IMG/VR virus record: IMGVR_UViG_2654587570_000002
Coordinates: 1-35,662 of that record
Strand: one strand, 5' to 3'
From: a virus
Taxonomy: Duplodnaviria; Heunggongvirae; Uroviricota; Caudoviricetes
Length of the DNA stretch: 35,662 nucleotides
The notes below the pieces were generated by a model. It was not told where the DNA came from. It saw nothing but the letters and a program-made list of their open reading frames with translations, and did no database searches. Shown one piece after another: positions 18,362 to 35,662 of the stretch; position 1 is the stretch's first letter, and each line of letters starts with the position of its first letter. The position numbers and the translations under genes were made by a program.

Positions 18362-19567
18362 TTACGCCGCTGCAATCTTCAGCAGTTTGATGGCCTGCGA
18401 ATCGACCAGCATCCCGCCGGTGCGCTTGGTGGTATAAAAACCGACAAACGGTTTATTGGTGTACGGGTCACGCAGAATGCGGGTGCCGATACGGTCAACG
18501 ATGGTGTAACCCCGTTTGAAGTTACCAAATGCAATGGCTTTCGCATCAGCGGCGATATCCGGCATCTGTTCGTTTTCAGCGATACCGTAACCCGCCAGAG
18601 AGGACGGCTGCCCCAGTTCCAGCCCCGGACGCCACAGATAGTTACCCTCGGTGTCTTTCAGCAGACGGATGGCAAACAGGCTGTTGTTGTTCATCATGAA
18701 CTTCGCGCCAGTGCGGTGTGCCTTACGCAGCGTGTAAATCAGTTTGATAATGGCGTCTGCGGTCACCGCGGTCGCTTCGCCGGATACAATATGCTGAAGT
18801 TTGCCGAACGCCCGGACCTTGTCGGTTTCATCAGTGGATTCATACGCCAGGAACCCTTTCGGCTTCTTGGTACCATCGCCGGTGGTAAAGGCAATTTCTT
18901 CCTGTTCGGCAAATTCGGTTGCCAGCTCGCTGTTGATCCAGGCCTCCACGTTGAAAAAGGCATCATCCAGCATTTTCTGGGTGGCCTGCGGGTTACCGTA
19001 GATTTCCCCCATGAAAGGTTCAATCAGCCCCAGTCTGGAAGTGGCAGTCTGGGAGCGCGCGTCAGTCTCGCCAACCCATCCGGAAGCCGTGCCGCCCAGA
19101 TTCACAAGTTTTTTGTAGTCGGAACCGCCAACGGTGATCACCGTGGCTTCCTGGCGCATCACCACTTCATCTTTCAGCAAGGTCAGAATGTTGCGATCCA
19201 GCGCTTCCGGCACGGCATAGCCACCGTCTTCATCGGTGCCCACCTGTAATGCCTTGCGCTCCAGATCGCGCAGACCATCTTCACGGCCTTTACGCAGGAA
19301 GCCCACAAACGCTTCTTTATGCTCGGTGGCCAGTTTATTCTGCGCACCACCTGCCGGACGTTTCAGCTCAAGCAGCTCTTTTTCAAGGTCGCTTTTGAGA
19401 TTTTCCAGCTCGCTGAGTTTTCCGTTCAGGGTTTCCACCTGCCCGGCAAGTTTGCCTTTTTCCTGCTCAATCGCCTCCACGCGCTTGTCGTTCTTTGCTT
19501 TGAAGTCGTCAAACTTCTGCTGCAGCTCCTGCGCGACCTGTTCGACATCTTTAATATCTACCGCCAT
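18362..19567 (-). CDS. major capsid protein, HK97 fold, with N-terminal coiled-coil delta/scaffold domain
   Basis: 401 aa; N-terminal about 100 aa strongly coiled-coil (…LNGKLSELENLKSDLEKELLELK…), C-terminal capsid domain; follows the prohead protease. Confidence 0.85.
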   Translation of the reverse strand: MAVDIKDVEQVAQELQQKFDDFKAKNDKRVEAIEQEKGKLAGQVETLNGKLSELENLKSDLEKELLELKRPAGGAQNKLATEHKEAFVGFLRKGREDGLRDLERKALQVGTDEDGGYAVPEALDRNILTLLKDEVVMRQEATVITVGGSDYKKLVNLGGTASGWVGETDARSQTATSRLGLIEPFMGEIYGNPQATQKMLDDAFFNVEAWINSELATEFAEQEEIAFTTGDGTKKPKGFLAYESTDETDKVRAFGKLQHIVSGEATAVTADAIIKLIYTLRKAHRTGAKFMMNNNSLFAIRLLKDTEGNYLWRPGLELGQPSSLAGYGIAENEQMPDIAADAKAIAFGNFKRGYTIVDRIGTRILRDPYTNKPFVGFYTTKRTGGMLVDSQAIKLLKIAAA

Positions 19568-33239: not shown

Positions 33240-33578
33240 CTATTTCCCTGAATTTACGACGAAACTGTTCGAGCGGGCTGAAGCACTCATGCTCATAGCC
33301 TTCGCGGAGGTAGATAACACGTTGTGTTTCCGACTCCCAACGAATGACTCTGACGGGCACTCCGTAGTGATCTTTGAACCAGCGGTTAACTTGTCGCAAA
33401 GGACTGTCTCCTTCTGCCGGTTGAAATCACCCACAGCCCACTCTGCAAAGCTGTGGGTTACAATTTCCCTGTCACCTGGTACATTCACTGCATAGCAATA
33501 TTCCACCTTCGCTTTTCCACCCGGAACAGGAAGCGCAATCAGTTGCGAGCGACGGTAGTGTGTTGTTAAACTGTTCAT
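33240..33578 (-). CDS. hypothetical early protein (112 aa)
   Basis: ATGA start/stop overlap with upstream gene suggests translational coupling; no motif recognised. Confidence 0.3.
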
Positions 33579-34144
33579 GCGTTAGTTTCTCCACAACCAG
33601 AAGCAATCGACGCCACGACGCCCGGAGCTGCACACTCGCGGGCGTCATTACTTTCTGAAATGCAAAAAATTTTGTAGACAAGTGCTGCATGCTCCTGCAG
33701 CTTCGAAATTGAGAGATACAGCTCGTCGTTAATTGCTGTCTTCTCATGCGGTTCCACTACACCGTCTTCGATTGCTGAACGAATCTGTTTTGAATAACTG
33801 CCGATCTGTTCAATGACTTCCAGCAGACGCTGGTTAATATCGGCGTTGTCCACATCCTCGACGTCAGGAAGAGACACAAAGACGCCATTTGCAGACTGCG
33901 CCACAGCATCAGCAATGAAGTGAGTGCCACCAGCACGCTGTAAAACCATTGCCCATCCCAGCGGGAAAATCTGATCGCCATCTGCACGAAGGCGGTTGAA
34001 TAAAGCGTTTTCTGTTACATCGAGCCAGTCAGCCGCTTCAGCGTAACCACCCGGCAACGCCGCGATAGTTTTTCTGACAGCTTTCACGTACCACTCAGGC
34101 TGTTTTTCTATTTTCCAGTGATGCTTACCCACAATTAGCCTCAT
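33575..34144 (-). CDS. hypothetical early regulator (possibly CII/CP76-like)
   Basis: 189 aa, position directly after cro-like gene; weak resemblance to phage CII-type HTH proteins. Confidence 0.3.
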
Positions 34145-34175: not shown

Positions 34176-34376
34176 CTAATCTTTCGGATAGATATCCGGT
34201 CTTAAGTCAGATTTCGTAATTGCACCTGACGTGCATTGCTCAAGTTTTTTAGCCAGCACAAAACTGGCTTTTTTATAGCCATTGAAAACCAGCCGTAAGT
34301 AGCCAGGTGTTGAGCCAACTTTTCCGGCCAACTCGCCCTGCTGTTCTTTGGTTAAAGAGTCCCAATACGCTTTCAT
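34176..34376 (-). CDS. Cro-like HTH regulator (66 aa)
   Basis: MKAYWDSLTKEQQGELAGKVGSTPGYLRLVFNGYKK...; GGAGG RBS 10 nt upstream; divergent from the CI-like gene (track ORF starts further upstream). Confidence 0.6.
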   Translation of the reverse strand: MKAYWDSLTKEQQGELAGKVGSTPGYLRLVFNGYKKASFVLAKKLEQCTSGAITKSDLRPDIYPKD

Positions 34377-34381
34377 ACAAT

Positions 34382-34451
34382 ATGTACCTCCGGTGTACAT
34401 ATTACATGATTGAAATGAACCTTCAAGATACTTGTACCTTAACGGTACAAG
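34382..34451. promoter_or_regulatory. immunity-region operators and divergent promoters
   Basis: Dyads ATGTAC-N7-GTACAT (34382-34400) and CTTGTACC-N5-GGTACAAG (34431-34451); minus-strand TTGAAG-N16-TAATAT upstream of cro-like; TTTAAT 6 nt before the CI-like ATG. Confidence 0.5.
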
Positions 34452-34466
34452 GGTTTTAATTTCGTT

Positions 34467-35141
34467 ATGAAAACAATCCATGACATCCGGCGGTCTAACG
34501 CCAGAAAACTGAGAGATGGTGTTGGCGGGAATTCTTCCTTTGCCACTATGATTGATCGCGAGCCAACCCAGACCAGCAGGTTTATGGGAGATGGTGCTAC
34601 TAAAAATATCGGTGACAGCATGGCACGACACATCGAAAAATGTTTCGACCTGCCTGTCGGATGGCTCGATCAAGAACACCAGACAACGAACATCACAAAA
34701 AAACCTGATGTTTCAATCACTAATAAACAAATCACATTAGTCCCTGTCATATCATGGGTACAGGCCGGAGCATGGAAAGAAGTTGGATATTCTGAGGTTG
34801 ATTTGAGCACAGCAGAAACGTATCCCTGCCCTGTACCCTGTGGGGAAATGACTTATATCTTGCGGGTGATAGGTGATTCAATGATTGATGAGTACCGCCC
34901 GGGAGACATGATTTTTGTCGATCCTGAAGTACCTGCCTGCCACGGTGACGACGTTATTGCATTGATGCACGATACAGGTGAAACCACCTTCAAAAGGTTG
35001 ATAGAAGATGGGACACAGCGTTATCTCAAAGCGTTAAACCCAAACTGGCCTGAGCCTTACATTAAGATCAACGGTAATTGCTCTATAATTGGTACAGTGA
35101 TTTTCTCAGGAAAACCAAGAAGATACAAAATCAAAGCCTAA
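34467..35141 (+). CDS. CI-like repressor (HTH plus S24 LexA-like autopeptidase domain)
   Basis: C-terminal LRVIGDSMIDEYRPGDMIFVD...TTFKRL (Ser/Lys dyad context); N-terminal HTH. Confidence 0.85.
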   Translation: MKTIHDIRRSNARKLRDGVGGNSSFATMIDREPTQTSRFMGDGATKNIGDSMARHIEKCFDLPVGWLDQEHQTTNITKKPDVSITNKQITLVPVISWVQAGAWKEVGYSEVDLSTAETYPCPVPCGEMTYILRVIGDSMIDEYRPGDMIFVDPEVPACHGDDVIALMHDTGETTFKRLIEDGTQRYLKALNPNWPEPYIKINGNCSIIGTVIFSGKPRRYKIKA

Positions 35142-35153
35142 TCAATGTTTATG

Positions 35154-35177
35154 AACCTGCTTCGGCAGGTTTTTTTA
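35154..35177 (+). terminator. rho-independent terminator after the CI-like gene
   Basis: AACCTGC-ttcg-GCAGGTT followed by TTTTTT. Confidence 0.55.
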
Positions 35178-35180
35178 TAC

Positions 35181-35213
35181 TTGACAATGTACCTTTGAGA
35201 TACATAATGTACC
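35181..35213 (+). promoter_or_regulatory. strong sigma70-like promoter with operator-like dyad (PL-like)
   Basis: TTGACA-N16-CATAAT; overlapped by ATGTAC-N7-ATACAT and a further ATGTACC, the same half-site as the cro/cI operators. Confidence 0.45.
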
Positions 35214-35334
35214 CAAGCGAAACAACGAACAGGCAGGACGCCCACGAAGTAGCCGCCTGGGGCATATGAAGTCCAGGATGATTCGTTGAGTCATGTTGTG
35301 CCACTAGGCACTCATGTTAAAGCAGGTGTATGAA

Positions 35335-35658
35335 ATGAAAGTCCAGATTTTAAACAATAACTGTGAAGTCGTTTGGTCATACGACATAGCCGCCCCTGTA
35401 GATCAGAGCGGCGATAGCTGGACCAATGAGAAACATCAGATTATGGCTGGAGTTGTGTTCTCTTTACGCCGTGCTTTGGAACAGGCTGAAGTATTTCCAT
35501 CAGACCCTGAATGGAAATGGCCTTTTTCTATTTGCCCAAATTCGGAGAACACATTTCAGAAAATTGGTCAGAAAGTCGGTAATGACTCCAACTTATTGAT
35601 AGTGTTTTATGTTCAGATAATGCCCGATGACTTTGTCATGCAGCTCCACCGATTTTGA
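35335..35658 (+). CDS. hypothetical protein, first gene downstream of the PL-like promoter
   Basis: ORF 35314-35658 in track; ATG at 35335 (MKVQILNNN...) preferred; not Arg-rich so not an obvious N-type antiterminator. Confidence 0.4.
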   Translation: MKVQILNNNCEVVWSYDIAAPVDQSGDSWTNEKHQIMAGVVFSLRRALEQAEVFPSDPEWKWPFSICPNSENTFQKIGQKVGNDSNLLIVFYVQIMPDDFVMQLHRF

Positions 35659-35662
35659 GAAC

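Follow-up and report, generated by a model that had tools for sequence, protein, structure and literature searches.

A conserved structured leader RNA at the early-left promoter of an SfV/SfII-like prophage, a candidate antitermination element

How does transcription of the early-left operon reach the distal genes xis and int in temperate phages that lack the antitermination protein N? For the N-less phages and prophages SfV, SfII, ST64B, ZF40, mEp237 and e14 we found no explanation in the literature. The question arises at the far end of a 35,662-nucleotide (nt) stretch of DNA from a virus of the class Caudoviricetes (IMG/VR record IMGVR_UViG_2654587570_000002, positions 1 to 35,662; hereafter “the window”), where a strong promoter behind the repressor gene cI is followed by a first gene that is not N-like. 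An earlier note on this DNA, made from the sequence alone, described the promoter and its operators, and it overlooked a structured RNA at positions 35224-35287 within the 120-nt leader that separates promoter and gene. This leader RNA, which may act as a cis-acting antiterminator, is the subject of the present report.

The leader RNA and its promoter

The element comprises 64 nt on the + strand (35224-35287) and matches covariance model R1 with 94.6 bits (E-value 9e-27). It begins with the 5' strand of helix P1 (AACGAA, 35224-35229, paired with 35282-35287), which is followed by a near-invariant internal strand of 25 nt (AGGCAGGACGCCCACGAAGTAGCCG, 35231-35255) and by the hairpin P2 (35256-35277), composed of CCTGG at 35256-35260, a 12-nt loop (GGCATATGAAGT, 35261-35272) and CCAGG at 35273-35277. 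The element closes with the segment 35278-35287, delineated by conservation and covariation, in which the tetranucleotide ATGA (35278-35281; AUGA in the RNA) precedes the 3' strand of P1, TTCGTT (35282-35287).

Both helices are defined by covariation, and compensatory changes are already visible in a leader alignment of five phages. In P1, five of the six pairs have changed on both sides, yielding variants such as AGCGAA/TTCGCT, CCACC/GGTGG, GTCATC/GATGAC and ATCGAA/TTCGAT; in P2 this holds true for all five pairs, and 94-98% of the alignment cells are paired. Across a first sample of 90 distinct sequences 94.9% of the cells are paired and 10 of the 11 pairs vary on both sides, with a covariation score of 0.668 versus 0.170. 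None out of 500 shuffles reached the observed score, and slid controls attained a pairing of only 17-46%. An independent sample of 95 distinct sequences from species-representative genomes gave 92.2% pairing and a score of 0.745 versus 0.197, in an alignment that was fitted to the model and thereby favours the structure. RNAalifold independently recovers P1 and P2 and adds the pairs C35254-G35280 and G35255-U35279 with A35278 bulged; accordingly, the last two bases of the internal strand (35254 and 35255) may extend P2. In contrast, folding of the single sequence is uninformative: the leader is no more stable than shuffled sequences (z = -0.72), and its computed structure is incompatible with the covarying P2.

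The unpaired parts of the element are conserved as well. Among 233 distinct sequences the internal strand is 95-100% conserved (consensus AGGCAGGACGCCCACGNAGUAGCYG, where position 35247 varies freely), a conservation that is partly forced by the search patterns. The AUGA tetranucleotide was not constrained by any search pattern and is conserved to at least 98%, while the P2 loop follows the consensus GGCRYAYGAANN. A mutual-information scan within the conserved strand, and between this strand and the P2 loop, revealed no Watson-Crick-like covariation. A GGC/GCC mini-hairpin within the conserved strand was considered and rejected, since variants such as GACAGGAAACCC break the pairing without compensation. 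Taken together, the comparative data strongly support a real, folded RNA element at the 5' end of the early-left transcript.

The promoter that would generate this transcript, the early-left promoter (PL), is the best promoter-like site of the region and matches the sigma-70 consensus at 11 of 12 positions (35181-35208, + strand; -35 TTGACA at 35181-35186, a 16-nt spacer and -10 CATAAT at 35203-35208). It starts 40 nt past the cI stop codon, is directed away from cI, and is identical in e14 and near-identical in SfV. From its position the transcription start is predicted at approximately 35215-35216. A left operator, OL1 (ATGTACC-TTTGA-GATACAT, 35187-35205), lies between the -35 and -10 hexamers; its 17-nt core (35188-35204, within ATGTAC-N7-ATACAT) deviates by one mismatch from TGTAC-N7-GTACA, which occurs in two perfect copies in the cro-cI intergenic region (34383-34399 and 34433-34449). 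Sites with at most one mismatch to this motif number four in the window versus 0.56 expected, and none of 100 shuffles reached four. In relatives of the same immunity, OL1 is a perfect palindrome (e.g., ATGTACC-N5-GGTACAT in loci L047, L085 and L114). A putative weaker operator, OL2 (ATGTACC-CAAGC-GAAACAA, 35207-35225), spans the predicted start site; its 17-nt core (35208-35224) has two mismatches, yet its left half-site ATGTACC (35207-35213) is exact, and this heptamer occurs only three times on the + strand of the entire 35.6-kilobase (kb) window, each time at an operator. Between the perfect right operators (OR), immediately next to the right-hand one, is a further 17-mer that resembles an operator poorly (34416-34432, three mismatches) and could represent either a weak middle operator or a coincidence.

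The earlier note had placed a terminator, a TTGACA-N16-CATAAT promoter and half-sites shared with the cro/cI operators at this locus, and had called it the equivalent of the PL/OL position. All of this is borne out: an intrinsic terminator of the cI transcript is present immediately upstream (35153-35178, + strand; 8-base-pair stem GAACCTGC-TTCG-GCAGGTTT at 35153-35172, a UUCG loop in the RNA, and a T-run), and the promoter follows directly, carries OR-type operators and points away from cI. The SfV record lists this terminator as putative and rho-independent. We consider it strongly supported that the region represents the early-left control region of an SfV/SfII-like prophage with e14 immunity. 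The genes xis and int are the last ones of the operon that this promoter heads in SfV and e14; in the window they are not in view, because the insertion sequence IS1 and the contig end intervene at 35578. The e14 genes ymfJ and intE of Escherichia coli K-12 are induced late in the SOS response (PMC11002266), which is what a CI-like repressor predicts. In the public records of SfV and e14, PL, OL and the RNA element are all unannotated.

Promoter and element form a module that recurs in other phages, with the same type of promoter at a fixed distance 5' of the RNA in many loci. Across 95 distinct upstream contexts a TTGAC-type promoter precedes the element, and the inverted repeats on its flanks are of at least 12 different sequences, and thus operators of different immunities. 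Where the promoter scores at least 9/12, the -10 hexamer ends 12-15 nt 5' of P1 in 39 of 52 cases, and a cI-like gene on the same strand ends approximately 116 nt upstream of the element in 88 of 125 loci. Even in mEp237, where five genes separate repressor and promoter, promoter and element remain adjacent. Opposite a fixed G, position 35254 carries C in 169 and U in 64 of the 233 sequences, a wobble that is possible on the + strand only, and at the haplotype level G-U is about twice as frequent as A-C. The fixed promoter spacing, the upstream cI-like gene and the + strand wobble indicate that the element constitutes the 5' part of the PL transcript, and favour the + strand as the structured one.

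Distribution and relation to known RNAs

BLAST searches with the leader retrieve a stretch of about 65 nt (35221-35285) at 83-100% identity in temperate phages of many genera, including Escherichia, Shigella, Salmonella, Citrobacter, Klebsiella, Yersinia, Pantoea, Pectobacterium and Providencia. The matching stretches carry no annotation, except that a few records place a “hypothetical protein” call over them. The 23-mer GGCAGGACGCCCACGAAGTAGCC (35232-35254) is found in at least 120 IMG/VR contigs, and a pattern that excludes the exact 23-mer identifies at least 120 further contigs, i.e., a total of at least 240. The combined pattern matches 110 places in species-representative genomes, all but two of them in Enterobacterales, with genera ranging from Kosakonia, Kluyvera, Leclercia, Enterobacter, Klebsiella, Citrobacter and Yersinia to Serratia, Xenorhabdus, Photorhabdus, Sodalis, Erwinia and Mixta. 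The two remaining places (L285 and L297) stem from records labelled Pseudomonas, namely P. lundensis I31 and a metagenome-assembled genome, and could reflect real transfer, contamination or mis-binning. Finally, a 55-nt query matches 1864 of 5426 complete E. coli genomes; thus, about a third of sequenced E. coli carry such prophages, and K-12 itself harbours the e14 copy under an SOS-inducible promoter.

Some loci contain incomplete copies. In L074 (977-1039, - strand), and also in L137 and L237, a shortened second copy (45.8 bits) is found about 600 nt 3' of the full one and on the same strand. The L074 copy retains P1, AGUAGCUG, P2 and AUGA, lacks AGGCAGGACGCCCACG and is preceded by an inverted repeat (TTTAAATAA...TTATTTAAA). 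In the IMG/VR contig L149 a promoter directly precedes a 5'-truncated element, which starts with GAGTAGCCG, is devoid of the P1 5' strand and most of the conserved strand, and probably represents a decayed copy. Within the window, a weak match to the leader model in the structural gene region (19279-19337, + strand; 14.5 bits, E-value 0.09) is probably noise.

The element does not correspond to an annotated RNA family. Rfam 15 yields no + strand match over 35224-35287 at E-values up to 5, no family reaches its gathering score anywhere in the window, and the element likewise remains without an Rfam match in SfV (L001), ST64B (L002), L003, L004 and e14 (L126). The literature, searched by the sequence itself and under put-like RNAs and antitermination in SfV, e14 or ST64B, yielded no description, although an earlier one may exist. 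Hence, an abundant structured RNA family missed by current annotation is well supported, and the family apparently has not been described so far. This holds whatever the function of the RNA.

The closest functional parallels are the put RNAs of the N-less lambdoid phages HK022 (putL and putR) and HK639 (putL). They too are structured RNAs of about 65-75 nt located just 3' of an early promoter, combine covarying helices with conserved unpaired nucleotides, and have no adjacent dedicated protein gene. In HK639, put is annotated on the left operon only (PMC9378689), comparable to the single copy in the window. The architecture differs, however: put consists of two side-by-side stem-loops, whereas the element is one long hairpin (P1 and P2) with the 25-nt internal strand. 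No homology between the two is detectable, and only short strings such as CGAAC and GGAUGA are common to both. Accordingly, an assignment to the HK022-type put RNAs was rejected: model R1 finds nothing in HK022 or HK639 at E-values up to 10, and a put covariance model (R2, built from HK022 putL, HK022 putR and HK639 putL) matches only those three sites.

Phage lambda offers a second comparison. The arrangement PL-OL-nutL-N resembles the window in that the promoter is directed away from cI, overlaps OR-type operators and is followed by a cis-acting leader ahead of the first gene, and the lambda operon ends in xis and int, as in complete relatives of the window phage. On the other hand, lambda has three operators versus two recognisable ones here, the repressor and operators of the window are of e14/SfV specificity (TGTAC-N7-GTACA), and neither boxA and boxB nor an N-like first gene is present at this locus. 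Direct reading of the leader (35209-35334) revealed neither a boxA (CGCTCTT/GCTCTT) nor a boxB-type hairpin, and the sole covarying hairpin has a loop of 12 nt versus 5 nt in boxB, so a lambda nut site was dismissed. Of 229 contexts, only 3 contain an N-like open reading frame (ORF) with an arginine-rich N-terminus in the 2 kb downstream. Resemblances to RfaH ops, hammerhead ribozymes and k-turns were also discarded, as judged by eye, because the defining bases are absent. Moreover, we found no conserved expression platform, terminator or alternative pairing 3' of the element, and no complement of 10 nt or more to the element core in the window.

A candidate antitermination RNA and its rivals

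We propose that the leader RNA is a cis-acting antitermination RNA, analogous but unrelated to put of HK022, a reading to which we assign a probability of roughly 0.45. The wider claim, that N-less lambdoid and SfV-like prophages across the Enterobacterales, e14 included, use it as a new class of antiterminator RNA, structurally unrelated to put and directed at RNA polymerase or Rho, is put forward more tentatively still. To our knowledge, RNA-only processive antitermination in phages is essentially confined to one family, the put RNAs of HK022 and HK639.

CI bound at the PL operators should block RNA polymerase until SOS induction triggers self-cleavage of the LexA-like repressor and frees the promoter, as observed for ymfJ and intE of e14. 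The transcript is predicted to start at about 35215 and, from approximately +9 onwards, to fold into the 64-nt element with P1, the 25-nt strand, P2 and AUGA. According to our proposal, the RNA would then act in cis, either on polymerase during elongation or against Rho, and transcription would continue through variable, partly antisense and untranslated cargo to xis, int and other distal early-left genes. The leader RNA would thus stand in for the N/nut system that these phages lack. In the prophage analysed here, IS1 separates PL from its former downstream genes.

Antitermination is suggested by the location of the element, which heads the early-left operon throughout and occupies the putL position in phages without N. 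It is further suggested by the nature of the RNA that has to be transcribed: in SfV, ST64B and e14, transcription has to traverse 400-630 nt beyond the element before the next early genes are reached, and this RNA is untranslated or antisense, a kind that is well suited to Rho-dependent termination. The unpaired bases are invariant across host genera while the surrounding phage genes vary, suggesting that the partner is a conserved host component, for example RNA polymerase, Rho or a Nus factor.

Several observations weigh against this proposal. Strong + strand intrinsic terminators are found within 3 kb downstream in only 40 of 234 loci, so the suppressed targets, if any, would mostly be Rho-dependent ones, which are not detectable in this analysis. 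In contrast to HK022, model R1 finds no second copy of the element after the early-right promoter (PR) in the window, and the put and element models do not cross-match. The wobble evidence for the strand is modest, the match of OL2 is weak, and a distal phage-encoded partner is possible. Covariation, moreover, defines no fold for the 25-nt conserved strand.

We rank the other roles of the leader considered here below antitermination: a nut-like protein-binding site, another cis function, or a function of the opposite strand. The leader might be inert on its own and serve as binding site for a dedicated protein, either a distal phage antiterminator or a host RNA-binding factor. Its position indeed corresponds to lambda nutL, covarying helices around conserved loops and single strands are a typical feature of RNAs that bind proteins, and CII-like (CP76) and cro-like proteins, both from DNA-binding families, co-occur in most loci. 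Yet, no protein family is common to all loci within 5 kb. The boxB sequence differs between phages in step with each N protein, whereas the core of the element is constant across phage types and host genera; the leader also lacks boxA and a boxB-type hairpin, and an N-like arginine-rich ORF follows in just the three contexts mentioned. On balance we regard a nut-like site as unlikely. An equally doubtful option is a different role in cis, in which the RNA functions as a stabiliser against RNases, as a processing site, in translational or ligand control of the first cargo gene, or as the source of a small trans-acting RNA. The location at the extreme 5' end of the transcript and a compact, aptamer-like fold with conserved unpaired bases would suit such roles. 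So would sub-threshold matches to the small RNA STnc100 (gathering score 47) further along the leader in SfV (L001, 4722-4937, +, 39.5 bits), ST64B (L002, 1855-1973, +, 35.1 bits) and e14 (L126, 3257-3478, +, 29.2 bits); these lie past the cargo cassette in a long, GC-rich, non-coding stretch of the same PL transcript, which overlaps the annotated ymfH in e14. However, which gene follows, and at what distance (median 173 nt; 26-748 nt from the 10th to the 90th percentile), differs greatly between loci, and therefore a fixed translational or riboswitch platform is unlikely. Neither a terminator nor a conserved alternative pairing is found 3' of P1, a plain stabiliser would not require 25 invariant nucleotides, and the window contains no complement of at least 10 nt to the core as a trans target.

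It is far less probable that the structure was selected on the opposite strand, where it would stop or insulate antisense transcription from convergent cargo toward PL and cI. In its favour, the terminator scan reports a weak terminator-like hairpin at 35245-35229 of the - strand, downstream ORFs are often convergent, - strand terminators outnumber those on the + strand (95 versus 41), and some A-C variants of the + strand, e.g., in the common P2 haplotype CCGGC/ACCGG, correspond to G-U on the - strand. Against this stand the roughly twofold excess of G-U over A-C among haplotypes, the C/U exchange at 35254, which pairs on the + strand only, and the CCACC-type variants, which lack a - strand U-run after the structure. 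Furthermore, a constant distance of 12-15 nt to a + strand -10 hexamer has no obvious meaning for a - strand terminator. A final alternative concerns the promoter: PL could be the private promoter of the first gene, orf33, with the true early-left promoter further downstream, in which case the locus would be no more than a common accessory-gene cassette. This notion derives some support from the replaceable nature of orf33 and its convergent partner, whose place is taken by the unrelated ymfJ/ymfI in e14, and from a putative terminator after the cassette in the SfV record. But in ST64B and ZF40, which have no cassette, the promoter-leader module directly heads the early-left genes; SfV shows no other + strand promoter-like site between the cassette and orf32; the operators match OR; and intE is co-induced with ymfJ in e14 (PMC11002266). 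A private promoter thus appears highly improbable.

If the leader RNA does act as a cis-acting antiterminator, it would constitute a second, unrelated and far more widespread leader RNA at the putL position, and the question of read-through in N-less phages would become directly testable. It might also serve as a compact part for synthetic read-through control that depends on host factors only, and as a marker to locate PL in prophage annotation.

The immunity region, the cargo cassette and IS1

The last 1.5 kb of the window share 98% identity with the immunity region of Shigella phage SfV, and their promoters and operators match the defective E. coli K-12 prophage e14 exactly; the remainder of the window is an SfII/SfI/SfV-like myovirus prophage. 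The immunity region comprises a CII-like gene (33575-34144, - strand), a cro-like gene (34176-34379, - strand) and cI (34467-35141, + strand). The latter codes for a repressor of 224 amino acids with a LexA-like S24 peptidase domain (Pfam Peptidase_S24, 1.5e-26; phrog_4, transcriptional repressor), the counterparts of which are annotated as cI in SfV and as ymfK/cohE in e14. Terminator and leader element of the window closely resemble those of the e14 cohE(ymfK)-ymfJ and SfV cI-orf33 regions, and in all three cases a convergent pair of small ORFs follows the leader. The e14 element differs by a P2 loop variant, UACGUACGAAGA, and the window differs from both relatives in that its cassette is cut by IS1.

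The first gene is a truncated homologue of SfV orf33 (35335-35577, + strand), of which the first 80 full codons of a 91-codon gene remain, preceded by a Shine-Dalgarno sequence, AGGTG (35324-35328, + strand), 6 nt upstream of the start. Its DNA is 98% identical to SfV up to 35578, and homology ends at 35577/35578; the window copy of the protein is 96% identical across the first 90% of the query, and then continues with IS1-encoded residues. The intact SfV protein matches the profile phrog_3195 over its full length (3.8e-65) and has no Pfam match. Homologues form 26 clusters, all hypothetical, which are restricted to E. coli and Salmonella and invariably start with MKVQIL. As homologues at 56-62% identity retain a set of invariant residues, orf33 is a real gene, even though structure prediction with AlphaFold2 on seven sequences (predicted local distance difference test score, pLDDT, 46.5) was too poor to be of use.

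On the opposite strand, alignment to SfV maps the 3' remnant of a convergent ORF of 81 amino acids (35528-35577; last 16 codons and stop; phrog_3311, unknown function). The intact SfV version (L001, 4389-4634, - strand) overlaps the end of orf33 and matches phrog_3311 at 1.2e-55. Since only the last 16 codons of this ORF remain, IS1 must have cut both genes. The IS1 end itself (35578-35662, - strand) comprises the 3' end of insB and the terminal inverted repeat GGTAATGACTCCAACTTATTGATAGTG, whose exact sequence has a single occurrence in the window. Over the 85 nt visible, it shows 100% identity to IS1 of P1, RCS47 and others. The insertion has severed the early-left operon of this prophage from its promoter.

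These data also bear on how the first gene had been read in the earlier note. The start at 35335 holds, given the Shine-Dalgarno sequence and the MKVQIL start of all homologues, and the gene is indeed neither N-like nor of recognised function, being assigned to a phrog of “unknown function”; the homology search proposed there as a check led to SfV orf33 and phrog_3195, not to a standard early gene of known function. In contrast, the end at 35658 is the stop codon of a chimera: the ORF listed as 35314/35335-35658 joins 80 orf33 codons to IS1-encoded residues. This chimeric protein is present in the protein database, and every contig that carries the chimeric ORF ends at the same point, indicating that the window is a whole contig breaking in IS1. 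The operon therefore does not simply continue beyond the window, as had been assumed; the gene is interrupted at 35578 and its reading frame stops within IS1. Also overlooked was the nature of orf33 as variable cargo. In e14, the slot of orf33 and the 81-amino-acid ORF is occupied by the convergent pair ymfJ/ymfI, which shows no protein similarity, and thus orf33 is replaceable and there is no fixed first gene. Likewise, across 229 non-redundant downstream contexts the first ORF 3' of the promoter-leader module differs widely.

Elsewhere in the SfV immunity region (L001, 1897-2085, - strand), matches to C4 antisense RNA (82 bits) and isrK (64 bits) lie inside the “immunity region” gene orf37; at the corresponding position the window carries a different module.

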